A stretch of DNA of 64,000 nt from Candidatus Aenigmatarchaeota archaeon. GTDB lineage: Archaea; Aenigmatarchaeota; Aenigmatarchaeia; GW2011-AR5. The DNA lies in the NCBI GenBank assembly GCA_018304605.1, contig JAGVVU010000034.1:3555-67554 (forward strand). Reading direction: 5' to 3'. The notes under the pieces were generated by a model. It did not search any database and was not told the DNA's origin. It saw only the letters and a list, made by a program, of their open reading frames with translations. Shown here in pieces: positions 14,656 through 59,417 of this stretch. Within the stretch, counting starts at the first letter, position 1. The number at the start of each line of letters is the position of its first letter. The position numbers and the translations under genes are program-made.

Positions 14656-14668
14656 ATTTTATCACAAG

Positions 14669-14844
14669 CGTCCCCGGCGCGATTCGAACGCGCGACCCCC
14701 TGCTTTCCCGGACGACGCATTCGAAGAATGCGTCAGTCTATCTCTCAGATATGATGTCATCATCACACAACCCGCCGGCTGTGCTCTGTTCACCTCCATA
14801 CCTGATAGGAGGCAGGTGCTCTATCCAAGCTGAGCTACGAGGAC
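14669..14844 (-). tRNA. tRNA-Arg(CCU) with an intron of about 100 nt in the anticodon loop region
   Basis: Acceptor GTCCTCG/CGGGGAC. D arm GCTC-AGCTTGGATA-GAGC. Anticodon stem CCTGC/GCAGG with loop CTCCTA+A. T arm GCGCG-TTCGAAT-CGCGC. The intron contains the perfect hairpin GACGCATTCTTCGAATGCGTC. Confidence 0.7.
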
Positions 14845-20520: not shown

Positions 20521-21312
20521 GTGATAACTATGGAGAGTGTGTACTTAGGAATTAGAAAGAATAAATTGAAGGCTGTAAAACTTCAAGAGAATAATAAATA
20601 TTTAGGACTTGCTTCTCTTACAGAAGGTTTCAAAAATTCAAGTGTTAGGTTACCAACAAAACTGACTCCGGAATTGGGGGAAGAAATCGGCATTCATATA
20701 GGTGACGGACATTTATCATCTAATCGTTACAGGTACAAACTTTTCGGTAACATAGACGAATCTGAATATTACGAGAATTTTGTGGCTGGATTGTACCAAA
20801 GGCTATACAACATAAACGTGAGATTAGAAAAAAGAGAAAGAGATGGTAATATCATAGGGTTTGAATTTTGTTCTAAACCCGTATGGATTTTCAAAACAAA
20901 AACCATCGGATTGATAACAGGTAGAAAAGACAATGTGTCAGTTCCCATCCTAATTCTAAACTCTAACCCGGCAATTTTGCGGGCATTCGTAAGAGGCTTA
21001 TTCGATACAGACGGGAATCTTTATTTCCAAAGCAGATATGGCTACAAAAACTACTATCCTCTTATTTCTCTTACATCCAAGTCAAAAGATTTATGCAAGT
21101 CGACATGTGAAATTCTGACAAAACTTGGATTCAAGGCAAATTATTACACAACACGAAATGAGGCAGTTGTCCAATTATATGGATATGAAAATCTTTTGAA
21201 ATATGCAAGTGAAATCGGGTGGCACAATACTAAACAGCTCAATAGATTCCTTGATTGGAAAAAACGCTTTCCGAATCTTGTGGAAAAGAAAAGGGCAGCT
21301 ATCGGGATTTGA
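20521..21312 (+). CDS. LAGLIDADG-family (double-motif) homing-endonuclease-like protein
   Basis: Motifs IGIHIGDGHL and LRAFVRGLFDTDGNL. Paralogue of the gene at 57008-57757. Its last 19 nt are antisense to the 3' end of tRNA-His. Confidence 0.7.
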   Translation: MITMESVYLGIRKNKLKAVKLQENNKYLGLASLTEGFKNSSVRLPTKLTPELGEEIGIHIGDGHLSSNRYRYKLFGNIDESEYYENFVAGLYQRLYNINVRLEKRERDGNIIGFEFCSKPVWIFKTKTIGLITGRKDNVSVPILILNSNPAILRAFVRGLFDTDGNLYFQSRYGYKNYYPLISLTSKSKDLCKSTCEILTKLGFKANYYTTRNEAVVQLYGYENLLKYASEIGWHNTKQLNRFLDWKKRFPNLVEKKRAAIGI

Positions 21313-21386
21313 ACCCGACCCGAAAGCTTTCTGTCAGCATAAGCTGGCCACAGGCTTGCATGCTACCAAGCTACACTATAGCTGCC
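21294..21386 (-). tRNA. tRNA-His(GUG) with encoded G-1 and an intron of about 19 nt after position 37
   Basis: G-1 opposite discriminator C73. Acceptor GCAGCTA/TAGCTGC. D arm GTGT-AGCTTGGTA-GCAT. Anticodon loop CTGTGG. T arm TCGGG-TTCAAAT-CCCGA. Confidence 0.7.
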
Positions 21387-36748: not shown

Positions 36749-36897
36749 TGGGCTCGGGCGGATTCGAACCGCCGACCTTTGCCGTATCTTCAACCAATCC
36801 TTTGCGTTCTTTCCGTTAACGCTTTCTTTAAAGAAGGGGTTAGTGAAGGCAACGTCATCTCGTGCCTGATTTTCAGGTACCACTAGACTACAAGCCC
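36749..36897 (-). tRNA. tRNA gene with about 76 nt of intronic insertion (D-loop hairpin insertion CCTGAAAATCAGG plus a further insertion), isotype unresolved
   Basis: Acceptor GGGCTTG/CGAGCCC with discriminator A. D arm GTCT-AGTGGTA. T arm GGCGG-TTCGAAT-CCGCC. Variable loop AGGTC. Followed by TTTT. Confidence 0.55.
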
Positions 36898-39670: not shown

Positions 39671-39806
39671 GGGCCGGTAGCTTAGCTTGGTAGAGCATCT
39701 GTCTTATATGACGTGCTTTGATAATAAACAAAATCAAAGCATTTGGCGTGACATCGTCATTGTCTAAGCCAGCAGAAGGTCATGAGTTCAAATCTCATTC
39801 GGCCCA
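39671..39806 (+). tRNA. tRNA with anticodon UAU (Ile, AUA-reading) if spliced at the canonical 37/38 site; intron of about 63 nt
   Basis: Acceptor GGGCCGG/TCGGCCC with discriminator A. D arm GCTT-AGCTTGGTA-GAGC. Anticodon stem TCTGT/GCAGA with loop CTTATA|intron|A. T arm ATGAG-TTCAAAT-CTCAT. The intron has an 8-bp hairpin GCTTTGAT/ATCAAAGC. Confidence 0.6.
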
Positions 39807-53406: not shown

Positions 53407-55020
53407 AAAAGCGGAAGACTTCGCGAAGGAGCAGAAGGAAATCAGCGTGAGCGAATTCTTTGAGAAAAACAAGCACCTTCTTGGATTTGACAACCCTACA
53501 AAGTCGCTGCTCATGGCAGTGAAGGAAGCTGTTGACAATTCTCTGGATGCCGCAGAGGAAGCAGGAATTCTTCCGGACATAACAGTCAAGATAAAGCAGG
53601 TGGACGAGAACACTTACATAGTTTCCGTGGCAGACAACGGACCGGGAATCGTCAGGGAGAACGTTCCCCGCGTATTCGGAAAGCTTCTGTATGGGAGCAA
53701 GTTCCACAGGCTGCTTCAGGGCAGAGGCCAGCAAGGCATCGGCATAAGCAGCGTGACACTCTATGCCCAGCTCACCACAGGGGTGCCGACAAAAGTCTGG
53801 TCGAAGGTGGAGAGCAAGAAAAAGACTTACTATTGTGAATTGCACCTGAATACTGCAAAGAACGAGCCCGACGTAATCAAGGAAGAGGAAATAGACAAGG
53901 AGGTCGTTGGTGAGCATGGCGTCAAGGTCGAGATGGAGATACACGGGCGTTACAGAAAAACCGTAGAGGATTACCTAAAGCAGACTTCTATCTCAAATCC
54001 GTTTGCCAAAATCGCATACACGTCTCCGGATGGAACGAAAACGGTTTTCCCGCGCTCACTCAATGATCTGCCAAAACCTCCTAAGAGGATGAAACCGCAT
54101 CCGCACGGCATGGAATTCGGAATTCTGCAACGCCTGCTCCAGAACACAAGCTCGCGTACACTGCTCTCTTTCCTGACGAACGAATTCTCTTCTGTAGGCA
54201 GTCAGAGCGGAAAGGAAATATGCAAACTGGCAAAAATTCCGGAAGATACAAAGCCGCAGGAACTTGACAGGATTGCGATAGAAAAGCTCATCCCCCGACG
54301 GACTGCTTGTCACCCATCGGTTCAGCGGAACTTGAGAAAAGCCTGAAGAAAGAATACCCGAACGCGGAATTCGTGACCTCAATAACAAGAGATCCTGAAG
54401 TTTACAGGGGGTTCCCGTTCCTCATAGAGGTCGGGATTGTTTATGGTTTGGGCGATGAAGTGCAAGCAAAAAGAAAAAAGGAAAACGATGATGACAAAAA
54501 GGAAGACGTGATAGAATTGATAAGATTCGCGAACCGGGTGCCACTGCTCTACCAGCAGAGCGCCTGCGCGCTGACAGAGGCGGTCAAGGATGTGGACTGG
54601 AGGCGCTACAATCTCTCGCAATCAGGCAGCAACCTTCCGTCGGGTCCTATGAAGCTGGTGATACACATCTGCTCCGTCTGGGTCCCGTTCATGTCCGAAA
54701 GCAAGGAGGCCGTTGCTGCATACCCGGAGATAATAAAAGAAGCGAAGCTTGCAATACAGGACGCTGGCCGCAAGCTCTCATCGTACCTGAGCGGAAAGCG
54801 CCGCGCGGGAGAGCAAAAACGCAGGATGCAGATGTTCGACCGCTACGCCGGCGAGGTGTCCGACGCACTGGCAATACTGACAGGAAAGAACGACAAGGAA
54901 ATAGAAAAGAAGCTCAGGGCACTCGTAGAGAGCAGGGTGCACATCAAAGAAGAGTTTGTTGACGAATCCGTAGAAATGTCGGATGCCAAGAAAGGGATAA
55001 AATCTGAAAAGAAACCATAA
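53393..55020 (+). CDS. top6B: DNA topoisomerase VI subunit B, interrupted by a frameshift in a C5 run near 54290-54300
   Basis: GHKL ATPase motifs (EAVDNSLDA, DNGPGI, GRGQQGIGIS) are in ORF 53363-54346. The transducer domain is in ORF 54307-55020. The frames rejoin if one C is added or removed in atcccccgacgg. Confidence 0.8.
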
Positions 55021-55047
55021 AAGAAAACAAATGAAGTGATAATAATG

Positions 55048-56124
55048 GCAAAAGAAGTCAAGAAAGAGCTGCAAAAACTCGGGGACAAGCTGCTACAGGA
55101 CATAGAAAAGAAGGAAAACCCGAGCATAGAAATACCTATACGGGCATTATCCAACGTTGTCTTCGACAAGAAACTGGGTCAGCTTACCCTGGGGGACAAG
55201 ACTGCGAAAAGATATTACTTCAACGTGGCGCACGCAAAGAAATTCATGCAGACCGCGATGGTTGCTTCATTCTCAAAGCAGCTGATAGACCAGAACATAC
55301 ATGCGAGCATCAGAGACATGTTCTACAACCTGAAGCGCACGCTCCCCGACAGCAATGAAAACACTTTTGACGAGCAATCAGAAAGCGATCCGATAATAGT
55401 CGATCTGGAAGTCGCAATAGATGTGCTTCGCGAGCAGCTTCACCTTACTACGGACAGAAAGGGGATAGTCGCCGGCAATGTCATCATCCAGGACAGGGGT
55501 GACAATATAGACTGGTCAAAGCTTGGCAGCGGCGGATGGTCTATCCCGAGTACGGTGGATGAAATCACGTTCAAGAAAGTCGATGCGGAATTTGTCCTGG
55601 TCGTAGAGAAGAACGCAGGATTTGAGCGCCTGCATGAGGACAAGTTCTGGCAGAAGCACAAATGCATACTCGTCGGAACCGGAGGCCAGCCATCCCGCGG
55701 CACAAGACTTCTGATACAGAGGCTGAATCAGGAGCACAAGCTGCCTGTTTACGTATTTTGCGACGCGGATGCATACGGCGCATATATTTATTCCGTAATA
55801 AAATCCGGCTCCATCAGCCTTGCGCATGTCTCCGACCGCATCTCAACGCCAAGCGCGAAATTCATCGGCTTGACCATAAGCGATGTGTACGAGTATGACC
55901 TGAAGAAGGCAACCATAAAGGCGAAAGACGTCGACATAAAGCGCGCGAAGGAGATGCTGAATTATGAATGGTTCAAGAAGAACCCGAGATGGCAGAAAGA
56001 GCTGAACCTCATGATAGAAAAGGGCATAAAAGCGGAAATAGAGGCTCTCTCCCACAAGGGCCTGAAGTTCATGTCGGAAACCTACCTGCCGGACAAGCTG
56101 AAGAAGAAAGATTTCCTAGACTAG
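55048..56124 (+). CDS. top6A: DNA topoisomerase VI subunit A (Spo11 homologue)
   Basis: Winged-helix plus Toprim. YVFCDADAYG acidic Toprim motif. Confidence 0.9.
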   Translation, partial: AKEVKKELQKLGDKLLQDIEKKENPSIEIPIRALSNVVFDKKLGQLTLGDKTAKRYYFNVAHAKKFMQTAMVASFSKQLIDQNIHASIRDMFYNLKRTLPDSNENTFDEQSESDPIIVDLEVAIDVLREQLHLTTDRKGIVAGNVIIQDRGDNIDWSKLGSGGWSIPSTVDEITFKKVDAEFVLVVEKNAGFERLHEDKFWQKHKCILVGTGGQPSRGTRLLIQRLNQEHKLPVYVFCDADAYGAYIYSVIKSGSISLAHVSDRISTPSAKFIGLTISDVYEYDLKKATIKAKDVDIKRAKEMLNYEWFKKNPRWQKELNLMIEKGIKAEIEALSHKGLKFMSETYLPDKLKKKDFLD

Positions 56125-56729
56125 GCTTTAATCATCTTTACCTTACCGTTCTTAACAAAAGCCGCACCGCCTTCTCTTATTTTCACGTATTTGTATCCGG
56201 TCTTTTTCAAGTCTTCCATAACTTTTGTATATGGCTTGGAGTATTTCTTATTTCCGAAATGAGGCAAAGGTACAAAACCAACAAGATTAAGTCCCTTGAA
56301 TGACTTGAGCTTTGCTTTGGAAGGGTCGTCCAGAAATCTTATGGAACGTATATTAGTACCTGCAACAGCCGCTCCTGCGCTCGAGCCGACATAAATCTTG
56401 CCTCCTCTAAGAAGTTTCTTAATAATCTTATCGAAACCAGATTCCCTCATTTTCTGCAAGAGGTAGAATGTATTTCCGCCAGCAACATAAATTATGTCAA
56501 ATTCGTTGAGTTTTTTTAACAAATTACTCTTTTTCATCCCTTTCAGGTCAACTGTGACCAACCTAAATCCTTTCTTTGTCAGAATTTTTCTATCTGCCCT
56601 GATCCACCACTTATCTTTGTAAGGGTCAGCTGCTGTCGGTATAAAGGCGAGCTTCAGTTTCGTCTTTGACTTTTGAATTGCTTTATCTACCAAACTAGAA
56701 GCATCAGAAGCCAGCAAGATATCGGTCAT
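56121..56729 (-). CDS. Peptidase E / S51-family dipeptidase
   Basis: IYVAGGNTFYLL and GSSAGAAVAG motifs. Confidence 0.65.
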   Translation of the reverse strand: MTDILLASDASSLVDKAIQKSKTKLKLAFIPTAADPYKDKWWIRADRKILTKKGFRLVTVDLKGMKKSNLLKKLNEFDIIYVAGGNTFYLLQKMRESGFDKIIKKLLRGGKIYVGSSAGAAVAGTNIRSIRFLDDPSKAKLKSFKGLNLVGFVPLPHFGNKKYSKPYTKVMEDLKKTGYKYVKIREGGAAFVKNGKVKMIKA

Positions 56730-56784
56730 AATCCTAACATGACGATTTCCTTTTAAATATTCCGCAAAAAGTTATTAGAGTCAT

Positions 56785-56899
56785 GCCCTGGTAGCTCAGC
56801 AGGTAAGAAGCTAGGCTTCTCTATAAAGAGCGCTTGAGATTTTAGGAATCGGCGAAGCTGTTAACCAAGAGGTCCGCGGTTCGAGCCCGCGCCGGGGCG
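56785..56899 (+). tRNA. tRNA-Asn(GUU) with two short non-canonical introns (about 22 nt in the D-loop, about 20 nt at position 30/31)
   Basis: 73-nt mature tRNA plus 42 nt. Acceptor GCCCTGG/CCGGGGC. D arm GCTC-AGCAGGTA-[AGAAGCTAGGCTTCTCTATAAA]-GAGC. Anticodon stem CTTG[intron]G/CCAAG with loop CTGTTAA. Variable loop AGGTC. T arm CGCGG-TTCGAGC-CCGCG. Confidence 0.6.
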
Positions 56900-57042
56900 C
56901 AAGGTAGCTCAGCTCGGGAGAGCACATAGTGTGAGGAAAACCTCATATTAGCTTAAACGGCTGAAGTTTAGGCAGGAACCGTACTGTAAAACACTGGTTT
57001 TATAGGTTTAAGCTGTCGAGGGTTCAAATCCCTCTCTTCCCA
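56900..57042 (+). tRNA. tRNA-like gene with about 70 nt of insertions; acceptor pairing and anticodon unresolved
   Basis: Canonical D arm GCTC-AGCTCGGGA-GAGC. Stem CTTAA/TTAAG flanked by a 9-bp helix AGCTTAAAC/GTTTAAGCT. Variable loop CTGTC. T arm GAGGG-TTCAAAT-CCCTC. The 5' CGCAAGG does not pair cleanly with the 3' TCTTCCC. Confidence 0.4.
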
Positions 57043-57757
57043 CTGCAATTTCAACTTTCCTTATATGTTTAGGATTATGAAATCCAATTTTTCCCATCCA
57101 GTTCTTTGCGTTTTTTCTTCCATTGATATAAATTCTACTTCCTTTAGAAGAGAAACCTCGATTGTCATTAACGATGGTGTCATATTCTGTATACATTGAG
57201 AACCCCATTTCTTTTAGAATTAATTCTAATTGTTCAACAAGTTTACGACTCTTCTGTTTTACTGAAATTACAGGATAATTATGTCCTTGTTTTTTTAATG
57301 ACACGGAACCATCAGTGTCGAAAAGTCCTCGAATGAATGGAATTATGAATTTTTTATTTTTGAGAATAAATTTGGGTATTTCTATGTTATCTTTTGGTCC
57401 AATATTGAATCCTATATCTTTTAGGAAATAAAATAATCCTTTTGATCTTGTTATAATTCGGATTGTATTTTGACCCTTCAGCTTTACGGGTTTTAATTTT
57501 ATATTGAATACCCTGAAAATTAAAGGCACTATAAAATTATCTATATACTCTTTGTCGTCAGTAAAGGAGCACGTTATAGAAATAGAGTATTCTGATGCCG
57601 TGCCGCCTTTAAACCGGTATTTGTTAATGCTTCCGTCACCTGTCATAATGCCTAAAAATTCTGCAAGTTCTTCAGATAAAACTACAGGCAATTGTAGACC
57701 TTTTCTTTTATCTCCGTAAGTAATGATTGATTTCATGTGATCACTTATGGACTTCAA
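57008..57757 (-). CDS. LAGLIDADG-family (double-motif) homing-endonuclease-like protein
   Basis: LAEFLGIMTGDGSI and IPFIRGLFDTDGSV. The C-terminal 12 codons are antisense to the T-arm of the tRNA-like gene. Confidence 0.7.
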   Translation of the reverse strand: MKSISDHMKSIITYGDKRKGLQLPVVLSEELAEFLGIMTGDGSINKYRFKGGTASEYSISITCSFTDDKEYIDNFIVPLIFRVFNIKLKPVKLKGQNTIRIITRSKGLFYFLKDIGFNIGPKDNIEIPKFILKNKKFIIPFIRGLFDTDGSVSLKKQGHNYPVISVKQKSRKLVEQLELILKEMGFSMYTEYDTIVNDNRGFSSKGSRIYINGRKNAKNWMGKIGFHNPKHIRKVEIAVGREGFEPSTA

Positions 57758-57813
57758 TACTCTATACTATAGAGTTCTAAACTATATAAAGATTTGTGTT
57801 CTTCTAGATAAAT

Positions 57814-58020
57814 ATGCCGAAGAAAAGGGGGTTTGGTCCGGATAAATACAAAATAGAAATACTCAATGTTCTTAGGAAATACCCATTCATGTCTACGTCA
57901 GAAATTTGCGATAATCTCAATATGGGTTATGAGACTGGGTTGAAGTATATTGAGCAGTTATCAAAAGAAGGTAAAATAAAGCACCGTAAAATAGGAAACC
58001 GGCAATTTTGGTACATCTAG
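57814..58020 (+). CDS. Small winged-helix DNA-binding protein
   Basis: 68 aa. ILNVLRKYPFMSTSEICDNLNMGYETGLKYIEQL. Confidence 0.5.
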   Translation: MPKKRGFGPDKYKIEILNVLRKYPFMSTSEICDNLNMGYETGLKYIEQLSKEGKIKHRKIGNRQFWYI

Positions 58021-58062
58021 TATTTCTCATCTTTTTATAAAAGCCGGGAAAATATACTACAC

Positions 58063-58635
58063 ATGGGTTACAGCTATGCACCCCAAAGCAGCGGAGGCTT
58101 GCAACTCGGGAAACGAGGCAAGCACCTCGCGATAGCCGCCGTAATAATCCTCTTTGTCGGGACATTCTATTTTGTTGGCAATACAATGACAGGCTATGTC
58201 ACTTACAGCGAGAGCCTTGAACAGCAATTAAATGAGACGCATAACAAGTTTCTCGACATGAAGGCACAATACGAAACCTGTGATGCATACCTGGGAAATG
58301 CGAACAGCAACATAGCGTCGCTGAACACCAGCCTGAATGCGTGCAGCACAGACATGTTTTCGCAAAAGCTGGCAGTGACTAGCTGCAATAATGAGAAAGA
58401 ACGGCTAGGCAGGGAAAAATCAGACCTGTCGAATTCCCTTTCATCCTGCAGGAGCGAACAGGTTTCATCCACAGAATCCTACAAGCAACTGGCACGCAAT
58501 TCGGTCAAGGCCATATGCTGCAGCTTCGGGGATGTGCAAAGCGGCTCTGTGCGCAACTGGAACATCACCAACAACAGTATAGTATGCACTGGCAATTACA
58601 CCATCAACTGCACCACCGGGGAATCGAACTATTGA
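58063..58635 (+). CDS. Membrane-anchored Cys-rich extracellular protein
   Basis: N-terminal TM helix. Coiled-coil. Ten Cys in the C-terminal half. Confidence 0.45.
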   Translation: MGYSYAPQSSGGLQLGKRGKHLAIAAVIILFVGTFYFVGNTMTGYVTYSESLEQQLNETHNKFLDMKAQYETCDAYLGNANSNIASLNTSLNACSTDMFSQKLAVTSCNNEKERLGREKSDLSNSLSSCRSEQVSSTESYKQLARNSVKAICCSFGDVQSGSVRNWNITNNSIVCTGNYTINCTTGESNY

Positions 58636-58793
58636 AGTTGGCTGGCTTTTTAAAGTTAAGTTAAAAACAGATAAAAGAAGTGGACAAAGGGCACCAGACT
58701 GTCGACTAGGCGCTGAAAGCGTCATGTTTGTTTGATGCTCGTCTGACTTACATAATTCAAAATGGTTCAGATCAGTCGACTTCTGTGATTTTT

Positions 58794-59417
58794 ATGCCAA
58801 AAAAACACAAGCAAAATCAAGACCAAAAAATAGAACAATCAGAGGACTTCGAGAGGAGGGAATATGTCGAGCCTGAGCCAGTAAAAGTCGTAGTTGACAC
58901 GCTCCTTGCAGAAGACAAGGTAATCGCTGTCGAGAATCGTGAGCATATCTATGAACCGGGCTATTACGGCAAGGATCTTGGCGAGAGGCTCGAGCTGGCT
59001 TTGGTCGAAGCGGTCCTGCTGCTCAAGCGCGGCAGGATAAAGGTGTCCTCCCTGGGAAAACAGCTGTCATTCAAGGAACTTTACGACCATGCATGCTCCA
59101 TGGACAAGAGATTCCCTCATAAATACAGGGTATATGAAGACCTGCGTGAGAGAGGGCTGCTGGTAAGGACGGGCTTCAAATTCGGCTGCGATTTTCGCGT
59201 ATATGAAAGAGGGGTACAACTGAAGAAAGGGCCAAAATCGGCAAAGGAACACACGAAATGGATAGTCTTCTCGGTGCCAGAGGACTTCACTATGTCTTTC
59301 GCCGAGCTTTCGAGAAGTGTAAGGTTGGCGCACAACATACGTGCCCGCATGCTCTGGGCTGTTGTTGACAACGAGGCTGATGTGACTTTTTATCAGATCA
59401 CTCGCCACAAACCGTAG
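58794..59417 (+). CDS. endA: tRNA-splicing endonuclease (EndA) catalytic subunit
   Basis: YRVYEDLRERGLLVRTGFKFGCDFRVYE and KEHTKWIVFSVPED...LAHNIRARMLWAVVD catalytic-domain motifs. Start set at the internal Met (MPKKHK). Confidence 0.75.
   Translation: MPKKHKQNQDQKIEQSEDFERREYVEPEPVKVVVDTLLAEDKVIAVENREHIYEPGYYGKDLGERLELALVEAVLLLKRGRIKVSSLGKQLSFKELYDHACSMDKRFPHKYRVYEDLRERGLLVRTGFKFGCDFRVYERGVQLKKGPKSAKEHTKWIVFSVPEDFTMSFAELSRSVRLAHNIRARMLWAVVDNEADVTFYQITRHKP

Follow-up and report, generated by a model that had tools for sequence, protein, structure and literature searches.

What is a tRNA-like gene whose acceptor stem does not close, and why does the reading frame of an endonuclease run into it? 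Both questions are raised by a stretch of 64,000 nucleotides (contig JAGVVU010000034.1, positions 3,555 to 67,554; below, the window is this whole stretch, and positions are counted from its first letter), in which a tRNA-Asn gene is followed by the tRNA-like gene and, on the opposite strand, by an open reading frame (ORF) for a LAGLIDADG endonuclease. The locus comes from a DPANN archaeon, since its LAGLIDADG protein matches the NCBI hypothetical protein J4400_04785 of Candidatus Aenigmarchaeota with 100% identity; many groundwater metagenome assemblies contain the same locus. We find that the tRNA-like gene is an ordinary archaeal tRNA-Phe(GAA) gene with three introns of the bulge-helix-bulge (BHB) type, at positions 27/28, 37/38 and 42/43. 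The locus as a whole is probably a tightly packed pair of intron-rich tRNA genes with a selfish endonuclease gene beside the second of them. Coordinates are collected in Table 1; L-numbers (such as L008 or L095) are labels for the public contigs or loci that were compared with the window.

The splice sites were fixed by the bulges and not picked to fit a cloverleaf. The BHB definition that was used has two 3-nt bulges around a 4-bp helix, with the cut after the second bulge nucleotide: the 5' exon ends with the 4-nt strand of the central helix and two bulge bases, and the third base of the other bulge opens the 3' exon. This rule was checked against the canonical geometry at 37/38. Once the three introns of tRNA-Phe are removed, and the GGG that the window lacks at the 5' end is restored (see below), 74 nt remain, which ARAGORN folds into a perfect cloverleaf with the anticodon arm CACGG-CTGAAGA-CCGTG and the variable loop CTGTC. 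The anticodon loop, which the first-pass annotation had called impossible to identify unambiguously, is CTGAAGA, with the phenylalanine anticodon GAA. The same annotation had credited the gene with perfect D, anticodon-stem, variable-loop and T-arm modules. The D-arm (GCTC AGCTCGGGA GAGC) and the 3' part of the gene (CTGTC GAGGG TTCAAAT CCCTC TCTTCCC A) are contiguous, but the anticodon stem is pieced together from four exons and forms no contiguous module.

In intron A the central helix is GAGC/GCTT, the bulges are AC-A and AA-A (the dash marks the cut), and a 10-bp inner hairpin carries an AAAA loop. Intron C has a 9-bp inner hairpin, a central helix AACC/GTTT in which three of the four pairs form, and the bulges GT-A and AA-G. 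In intron B the anticodon stem serves as the outer helix; the central helix is CTG/CAG, the 3' bulge is GA-A, and the 5' splice site lies in a loop. When the intact pre-tRNA-Phe is folded without constraints, its minimum free energy (MFE) is -58.3 kcal/mol (z = -5.76), a value that 0 of 200 shuffled sequences equalled. Present in this fold are, of the tRNA itself, the acceptor stem and the T-arm, and, of the introns, the BHB of A and the hairpin of C.

Comparison with orthologous loci, one of the checks proposed in the first-pass annotation, supports the spliced structure. A metagenome contig of a relative (L095), whose tRNA-splicing endonuclease EndA is 80% identical to that of the window, contains the uninterrupted sequence CACGGCTGAAGACCGTG, which is exactly the predicted spliced anticodon arm. 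In the Aenigmatarchaeota genome L012, where the subunit A of topoisomerase VI (TopoVI-A), tRNA-Phe, the LAGLIDADG gene and EndA are syntenic with the window, the tRNA-Phe gene has a homologous 12-nt intron, CAAAAAGCAGGA, at 37/38. What it has in common with the TTTAGGCAGGA of the window is GCAGGA, from which the central helix and the bulge are built.

The preceding gene had been described as a tRNA-Asn of 115 nt, made up of 73 nt, a D-loop insertion of 22 nt and a further 20 nt at 30/31, and this description holds in full. Its bulge-set splice sites, again not picked to fit, yield a perfect anticodon stem CTTGG/CCAAG, and the spliced 73 nt are a perfect cloverleaf in ARAGORN, with the loop CTGTTAA, the anticodon GTT and G as discriminator. 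Intron 1 has a 6-bp inner hairpin (AGAAGC/GCTTCT), which RNAfold recovers, the bulges GT-A and AA-A, and a central helix GCAG/CTAT with three of four pairs and one C.A mismatch. In intron 2 the central helix is CGCT/GGCG, the bulges are TG-A and AA-G, and the inner and outer helices measure 5 bp and 2 bp. In the MFE fold of pre-tRNA-Asn the hairpins of both introns are preserved, together with the acceptor and D stems.

In the assembly ERZ27254752 the locus is split into two contigs, one of which (L006 and L115 being the pair) stops at 56805 while the other begins near 56865. The stretch with both Asn introns is unassembled there, which could reflect either a polymorphism in intron presence or low coverage.

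Several points weigh against so intron-rich a reading of the two genes. Splicing, mature ends and co-transcription of tRNA-Asn and tRNA-Phe are predicted here from DNA rather than read from RNA. Three of the five introns (Asn 20/21, Phe 37/38 and Phe 42/43) have a relaxed BHB, with one mismatch or with a bulge absent, and a permissive BHB scan gives many chance matches, so that the motif alone is weak. Further, pre-tRNA-Asn folds no better than shuffled sequence (z = -0.86), and the ortholog support for introns covers tRNA-Phe, not tRNA-Asn. The case for multiple introns rests on the cloverleaf and on the orthologs; the BHB scan is supportive, not decisive.

Other foldings of the two genes were considered and set aside. 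The models that ARAGORN gives when introns are allowed (Gln in place of Asn, Tyr with a 22-nt variable region in place of Phe, and an antisense Ser) all require mismatched stems. A Tyr (GTA) anticodon arm with AGTGT/ACACT requires a spacing of 4 nt from D stem to anticodon stem; the 9-bp helix AGCTTAAAC/GTTTAAGCT, taken as anticodon stem, results in no 7-nt loop; and an alternative register of intron C (56981/57012, with an outer helix of 5 bp and no inner helix) would delete one stem base. In its default run ARAGORN misses tRNA-Asn and tRNA-Phe, as does Rfam at the gathering threshold; of the tRNA finders that had been suggested as a further check, ARAGORN recognises the spliced sequences as perfect cloverleaves. 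The default misses are due to a limitation of the tools and are not evidence against the genes.

Once resolved in this way, the core finding is an ordinary one: tRNA-Asn and tRNA-Phe are new examples of the established multi-intron tRNAs of archaea. Such genes, processed by EndA at BHB motifs, have been described in Thermoproteales and in ARMAN/DPANN archaea (PMC4090602; Kaneta et al. 2018, PMC5829648). The present ones share with them short introns at 37/38 and at the non-canonical positions 20/21, 27/28, 30/31 and 42/43, up to three per gene, a strict or relaxed BHB at each junction, an EndA in the genome, and the fact of being missed by standard finders. There is no difference in kind; what is new is these Aenigmarchaeota genes and their intron positions.

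The tRNA-Phe genes of other uncultured archaea are interrupted elsewhere. In L093 and L105, both from metagenomes, an intron apparently splits the 5' acceptor strand (GGGAA[...]GG, read by eye); in L097 the gene is interrupted after position 9 and within the anticodon stem, and in L011 at 9/10 and within the T-loop. The places at which tRNA-Phe is interrupted change rapidly from one relative to the next.

Why, then, does the acceptor stem seem open? As the first-pass annotation stated, in the window the 5' CGCAAGG of 56900-57042 cannot pair with the 3' TCTTCCC, owing to C1xC72 and C3xC70. In other assemblies G73 of tRNA-Asn is followed by CC and GGGAAGG, and in the window by C and AAGG: the absent CGGG is the second spacer C together with G1-G3 of tRNA-Phe. 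Aligned over the junction, the window reads CCGGGGCGC, four gaps and AAGG where the others read CCGGGGCGCCGGGAAGG; the intact junction string is GCGCCGGGAAGG and that with the deletion is GCGCAAGG. With CGGG present, GGGAAGG/TCTTCCC pairs perfectly (with G7.U66), and tRNA-Asn and tRNA-Phe lie only CC apart. The stem thus appears open because the window lacks CGGG, and with it G1-G3, and the deletion alone accounts for this.

The deletion is peculiar to the window. CGGG is present in 13 of 13 junction-spanning contigs from as many other assemblies (L001-L005, L007, L008 and L110-L115), and the window form is present in 0. Over the 1.1 kb from 56730 to 57830 the CGGG gap is the sole difference between the window and these 13 contigs, and in L008 it is the sole difference over about 6 kb. 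A scan of the collection for the 3' end of tRNA-Phe gave 16 metagenome loci, two of which (L100 and L106) have another tRNA identity (loop CTGATAA, acceptor GGGAGGA) while a third, L095, is cut off at its 5' end. This leaves 13 complete tRNA-Phe(GAA) genes: 12 of the 12 with an uninterrupted 5' acceptor strand begin with GGGAAGG, and the thirteenth (L105) is the one that is apparently interrupted by an intron. In our interpretation the deletion is either an error of assembly or consensus or a rare defective variant, and the gene of the population is intact either way.

Between these two, a deletion that is real in the strain is the unlikely one. The tRNA-Phe gene would then have lost its function recently and be a pseudogene, or would encode a tRNA impaired by C1xC72 and C3xC70, with another copy supplying the function. 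Several strains do exist, as further SNPs (single-nucleotide differences) and indels between the window and some other assemblies indicate, and contigs from two other assemblies (L009 and L010) stop exactly at the junction. Such ends are expected of a polymorphic site, although they fit an error as well as a real variant. All 13 other contigs have CGGG, including L007 and L008, which otherwise differ from the window by 0-2 mismatches over 6-7 kb. The deletion site is a GC-rich tandem repeat (GCGCCGGG x2) beside a strong hairpin, which would be a typical place for a consensus error. In DPANN genomes tRNA genes are usually single-copy, which counts against a second copy of tRNA-Phe.

It is far less probable that the tRNA-like gene is, as had also been proposed, a decoy or a partial tRNA duplication left by a mobile element, here an attachment-site remnant from the insertion of the LAGLIDADG gene. 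Like an integrative element, the LAGLIDADG gene abuts the 3' end of a tRNA, and GC is lower in the 2-kb windows with LAGLIDADG genes. However, tRNA-Phe is complete, with every arm present, nothing points to a decoy, and in syntenic relatives this tRNA-Phe occurs whether or not the LAGLIDADG gene is there. A domain search of the neighbouring ORFs turned up no integrase, and beyond the LAGLIDADG gene (near 57758-58100) neither a second T-arm nor a repeat of the tRNA 3' end was found.

Least probable of all, and refuted for this locus by the other assemblies, is an acceptor stem completed by unusual processing, be it through an acceptor-stem intron, a permuted gene or a 5' piece encoded apart and trans-spliced. 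DPANN and TACK archaea do have tRNAs that are split or permuted (PMC5829648), and the tRNA-Phe of L093 and L105 indicates that acceptor-stem introns exist in other uncultured archaea, yet the intact allele is contiguous, colinear and perfectly closed in 13 of 13 assemblies, the 85 nt upstream of tRNA-Asn hold no GGG 5' exon, and a gap of 4 nt is too short for a BHB intron. Of the unusual processing that the first-pass annotation had envisaged, what stands is the removal of introns from non-standard positions. Searches of the window for CCTTGCG (as 3' acceptor strand) and GGGAAGR (as 5' exon) returned chance-level counts, with none suitably placed. Two further arrangements, a tRNA-Asn nested in an acceptor-stem intron of tRNA-Phe and an overlap of the two genes through the GGG of the Asn 3' strand, are unnecessary given the allele with CGGG.

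As to its processing, the pair could be co-transcribed from a TATA-like box, read by eye, at about -30. EndA, whose gene lies 1.7 kb downstream, would then cut out the five introns at their bulges, with ligation of the exons, and a cut by RNase P at G1 of tRNA-Phe would leave tRNA-Asn ending in ...G73-CC. The closest solved structure to this EndA is the alpha4 enzyme of M. jannaschii (1a79, 2.5e-33), and from its sequence the protein looks alpha4-like. Between the catalytic Tyr and His it has a Lys-rich insertion of six residues (KKGPKS) in common with the alpha subunit of N. equitans (3iey_A). Kaneta et al. 2018 linked DPANN EndAs of the alpha4 type with an extra loop to disrupted tRNA genes (PMC5829648); no assignment of the KKGPKS insertion to their L1, L2 or L3 loops was reached. 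In L012 two tandem EndA paralogs (682-1700; 59% and 47% identical to the window EndA), which may be an alpha/beta pair, stand where the window has one.

Table 1. Features of the window discussed in the text, in order of position.
Feature	Positions	Strand	Details
tRNA-Arg(CCT), unannotated	14668-14844	-	101-nt intron at 37/38; clean cloverleaf when spliced
Paralogous LAGLIDADG gene	20521-21312	+	32% identical; stop codon in T-loop of convergent tRNA-His
tRNA-His(GTG)	21294-21386	-	encoded G-1 (21386), C73; canonical 19-nt BHB intron 21329-21347
tRNA-Val(CAC), unannotated	36749-36896	-	introns of 20 nt in D-loop (ACCTGAAAATCAGGCACGAG) and 57 nt at 36/37 or 37/38
tRNA-Ile	39671-39806		intron-containing
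Topoisomerase VI subunit A (TopoVI-A)	55036-56124		
S51 peptidase	56121-56729		
TATA-like box TTTTAAATA	56751-56759	+	about 30 nt upstream of tRNA-Asn; by eye; candidate promoter of a tRNA-Asn/tRNA-Phe co-transcript
tRNA-Asn(GTT) gene, 115 nt	56785-56899	+	exons 56785-56804, 56827-56836, 56857-56899; discriminator G73 at 56899
tRNA-Asn intron 1, 22 nt	56805-56826	+	D-loop, position 20/21; relaxed BHB (BHB scan)
tRNA-Asn intron 2, 20 nt	56837-56856	+	position 30/31; strict BHB (BHB scan)
Site of 4-nt (CGGG) deletion peculiar to the window	56900-56901	+	alignment to other assemblies
tRNA-Phe(GAA) gene, positions 4-73 in the window	56901-57042	+	exons 56901-56925, 56957-56966, 56978-56982, 57012-57042
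tRNA-Phe intron A, 31 nt	56926-56956	+	position 27/28; strict BHB (BHB scan)
tRNA-Phe intron B, 11 nt (TTTAGGCAGGA)	56967-56977	+	canonical position 37/38; relaxed BHB; manual analysis
tRNA-Phe intron C, 29 nt	56983-57011	+	position 42/43; BHB scan
LAGLIDADG endonuclease gene, free-standing, single-chain	57008-57757	-	ORF of 249 aa; Pfam LAGLIDADG_3, 2.3e-14
TATATAAA/TTTATATA box	57783-57790		between the divergent LAGLIDADG and wHTH genes; by eye; candidate promoter(s)
Winged-helix (wHTH) protein, 68 aa	57814-58020	+	divergent from LAGLIDADG gene; Pfam HTH_24
tRNA-splicing endonuclease EndA	58728-59417	+	called gene 207 aa; Pfam tRNA_int_endo_N and tRNA_int_endo

The second question concerns the LAGLIDADG gene, which lies immediately 3' of tRNA-Phe and converges with it. 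The antisense course of its ORF through the T-arm, one of the observations of the first-pass annotation, is confirmed: the frame ends in ...AVGREGFEPSTA*, running across the 3' acceptor strand and the T-arm, and its last 11 or so codons are antisense tRNA-Phe. Public gene calls give it 242 aa, from an ATG at 57736. Between NPKHIRK, the conserved C-terminus, and the 3' end of tRNA-Phe there are about 18 nt; the frame runs on through these and into the antisense tRNA until the first stop. The overlap is thus a by-product of very tight apposition, since the conserved part of the protein ends before the tRNA and the frame merely continues.

By sequence, the closest solved relative of the protein is I-DmoI. 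D41 (in LGIMTGDG) and D149 (in IRGLFDTDG) align to D21 and E117 of I-DmoI, which we take to be its catalytic acidic residues, and both, with the GDG and DTDG in which they stand, are invariant in 30 homologs. A model built with AlphaFold2 has the pseudo-dimeric alpha-beta-beta-alpha-beta-beta-alpha fold (predicted local distance difference test score, pLDDT, 92.5; predicted TM-score, pTM, 0.89); residues 242-247, within the antisense-tRNA tail, are its sole disordered stretch, with a pLDDT below 50. Foldseek matches the model to I-DmoI, I-Tsp061I and, among intein endonuclease domains, PI-PfuI, with probability 1.00 and E about 1e-10. Taken together, alignment and model indicate a single-chain enzyme of the I-DmoI type with both catalytic acidic residues present.

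A further LAGLIDADG-tRNA overlap in the window, noted before this one, is confirmed as well, between the ORF 20521-21312 (+) and the tRNA at 21294-21386 (-). Default ARAGORN labels the latter Pro(TGG); with its G-1, its C73 and its BHB intron it is in fact tRNA-His(GTG). GC is 0.37-0.39 in the 2-kb windows with the two LAGLIDADG genes, compared with 0.43-0.50 in the rest of the window.

Is the position beside a tRNA gene peculiar to this locus? A scan of species-representative genomes yielded at least 496 relatives (copies confirmed by tblastn), and the 80 best were examined. Nearly all of these 80 are labelled as DPANN archaea (Aenigmatarchaeota, Woesearchaeota, Nanoarchaeota, Micrarchaeota, Pacearchaeota, Iainarchaeum, Altiarchaeales), while a few bear the labels Methanosarcinales, Thaumarchaeota or plain 'archaeon'. 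Boundaries of tRNA genes were counted with ARAGORN in 78 loci with a complete ORF, 404 kb in all. In 47 of the 78 a tRNA boundary lies between -105 and +52 nt from the LAGLIDADG stop codon, with the tRNA convergent in 21 cases and on the same strand in 26; the whole 404 kb hold only 12 other tRNAs, and a tRNA in the 300 nt upstream of the gene is seen at no more than 4 loci. A scan for T-arm motifs and Rfam (20 loci) agree with ARAGORN and add cases that it missed, and by hand the neighbours in L011 and L012 turn out to be intron-containing tRNA-Phe genes. Whether the tRNA is convergent or on the same strand, some 20-30 nt separate its boundary from the conserved NPK motif.

The partner tRNA is also conserved. 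For 25 of the 32 genes whose tRNA was labelled with confidence, the closest relative within the family adjoins the same tRNA species, compared with a mean of 4.4 and a maximum of 14 in 2000 permutations. The window gene groups with L011, L012, L013, L035, L102, L029 and L041, all of them beside tRNA-Phe, and the second copy of the window groups with genes beside tRNA-His. Within a clade the gene can stand at either end of the tRNA, and it always points toward it. A 3' end set against a tRNA boundary is a trait of the whole family, and its clades are specific to one tRNA species.

T-arms on the same strand had at first suggested that the gene might lie in a tRNA intron; ARAGORN, however, shows complete tRNAs that begin at or near the stop codon. 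In two loci ARAGORN calls a tRNA whose intron would enclose the LAGLIDADG ORF: one of 761 nt in L050 (2490-3344, ORF in sense) and one of 876 nt in L043 (3-972, ORF in antisense). Both may be false calls, and they are the sole remaining possible intron-encoded members of the family.

What could account for such a distribution? Our proposal, which we put forward tentatively and at somewhat less than even chances, is that a DPANN-wide family of free-standing single-chain LAGLIDADG endonucleases uses tRNA genes as homing sites, with clades for Phe, His, Arg-GCG, Gln, Thr and others, inserting some 0-50 bp away from either mature end of the tRNA (5' or 3') and always turning its own 3' end to it. 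Each lineage would home to the flank of its cognate tRNA, cutting alleles without the gene and being copied in during repair. In so compact a genome a tRNA gene, being conserved and essential, would offer a target that persists and a place where insertion does no harm. The fixed orientation may follow from the acceptor stem, whose strands form an inverted repeat: an approaching element would meet the same 7-mer in the same orientation at both ends of the tRNA, and this would account for the occurrence of one clade at both ends, never pointing away.

Pairs of loci with and without the LAGLIDADG gene at a fixed site fit a homing element. L041 and L104 share the flanking genes on both sides, and L041 has about 1.03 kb extra (a 62-aa ORF and the LAGLIDADG gene) between the 3' end of tRNA-Phe with its oligo-T tract and the next gene. 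In L104 the same interval measures about 29 nt by tblastx coordinates, or about 13 nt to the stop codon of the neighbour when read by eye. Upstream of tRNA-Phe, L013 exceeds L091 by about 1.4 kb, and in the window 1.7 kb (the LAGLIDADG gene, wHTH and a 190-aa ORF) separate tRNA-Phe from EndA, which are adjacent in L095.

Some observations speak against homing, or at least do not require it. The window and L095 differ by three genes and not by the LAGLIDADG gene alone. Copies that are 44-47% identical stand at the same site in the Aenigmatarchaeota L011 and L012, which fits old vertical inheritance as well. Further, 30 of the 78 scored loci have no tRNA called by ARAGORN, though several of these have T-arm motifs or multi-intron tRNAs when inspected by hand. 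For the endonuclease itself, homing, cleavage site, target and mobility event are all putative.

Persistence at one site across Aenigmatarchaeota species is also what would be expected if the proteins were domesticated host factors tied to tRNA genes, for example DNA-binding regulators like WhiA or RNA maturases, so that adjacency reflects function or co-regulation. There are precedents for domesticated LAGLIDADG scaffolds in WhiA and in the bI3 maturase; the latter is among the fold matches, and a few homologs are labelled WhiA at JGI. We nevertheless regard domestication as rather improbable. Both catalytic acidic residues are invariant, the distribution among syntenic relatives is patchy, there are many paralogs, each tied to a different tRNA, and the LAGLIDADG genes are lower in GC. 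In addition, many partner tRNAs are intronless, which makes a role in splicing unlikely.

The tentative homing family resembles known systems in part. I-DmoI and I-Tsp061I, which are archaeal and encoded in BHB introns of rRNA, have the two-domain monomeric fold, both catalytic acidic residues and an archaeal host in common with the window protein. In contrast to them, the window gene is free-standing, lies outside the tRNA and in no intron or intein, and its family is often on the opposite strand. SegB of phage T4 and other free-standing homing endonucleases ('intronless homing'; PMC2988022, PMC13096335) likewise lie among or beside tRNA genes, and they are presumed to act in the same manner, by cutting a nearby allele without the gene, with co-conversion of flanking DNA. 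SegB, however, is a GIY-YIG enzyme in a phage tRNA cluster, whereas here LAGLIDADG genes in archaeal chromosomes form clades per tRNA species and have their 3' end at the boundary of the mature tRNA. For the retrotransposons Ty3, TRE5-A and DGLT-A (PMC5006619) the flanks of tRNA genes are likewise safe landing sites in gene-dense genomes; their mechanism, with tethering to the Pol III machinery and reverse transcription, is entirely different, so the likeness is an analogy of logic only. In the literature that we searched, and within its limits, we found no description of LAGLIDADG genes adjoining tRNA genes in archaea.

Small genes may accompany the endonuclease. The winged helix-turn-helix (wHTH) gene of the window has a homolog, 60% identical and likewise divergent from a LAGLIDADG gene, in L011 (2192-2395). 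As it recurs only there, we rejected it as a general partner of the element. In L041 (about 2165-2440) the 62-aa ORF upstream of the endonuclease gene is putatively DNA-binding; such small companions are not family-wide.

Introns also mark the other tRNA genes of the window. All six (Arg, His, Val, Ile, Asn and Phe) have introns, ten in total. With default settings ARAGORN calls one of the six, with the wrong identity, and Rfam calls that one and a second. Both tools missed tRNA-Val, whose spliced sequence ARAGORN does call tRNA-Val. Kaneta et al. noted that tRNA predictions in DPANN are incomplete (PMC5829648), and calls for one or two genes of six mean that DPANN tRNA complements are badly under-called, as these authors suspected. 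Upstream of the locus, the alignments of the window to all other assemblies stop at 54291/54292, where about 31 nt of the other contigs remain unaligned to the window; this break is another small structural difference between the window assembly and the others.

These results first of all correct a reading: the tRNA that looked aberrant is an essential tRNA-Phe of the normal kind, masked by three introns and by an error or variant of four bases in one assembly. The by-product of the analysis may matter more: the overlap of LAGLIDADG gene and tRNA is no coincidence and is the signature of a large endonuclease family whose clades track tRNA identity. If its members are active homing enzymes, nature would have provided in them a set of meganucleases that are built on related scaffolds and have different but predictable targets in the flanks of tRNA genes; they would also add a new case of selfish elements surviving in a minimal genome. 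The many introns of the tRNAs could then be linked to them, for example through the disruption of target sites, which is pure speculation. If the proposal is true and so far undescribed, tRNA genes would be where selfish elements of the protein-only kind chiefly find refuge in ultra-small genomes of archaea.

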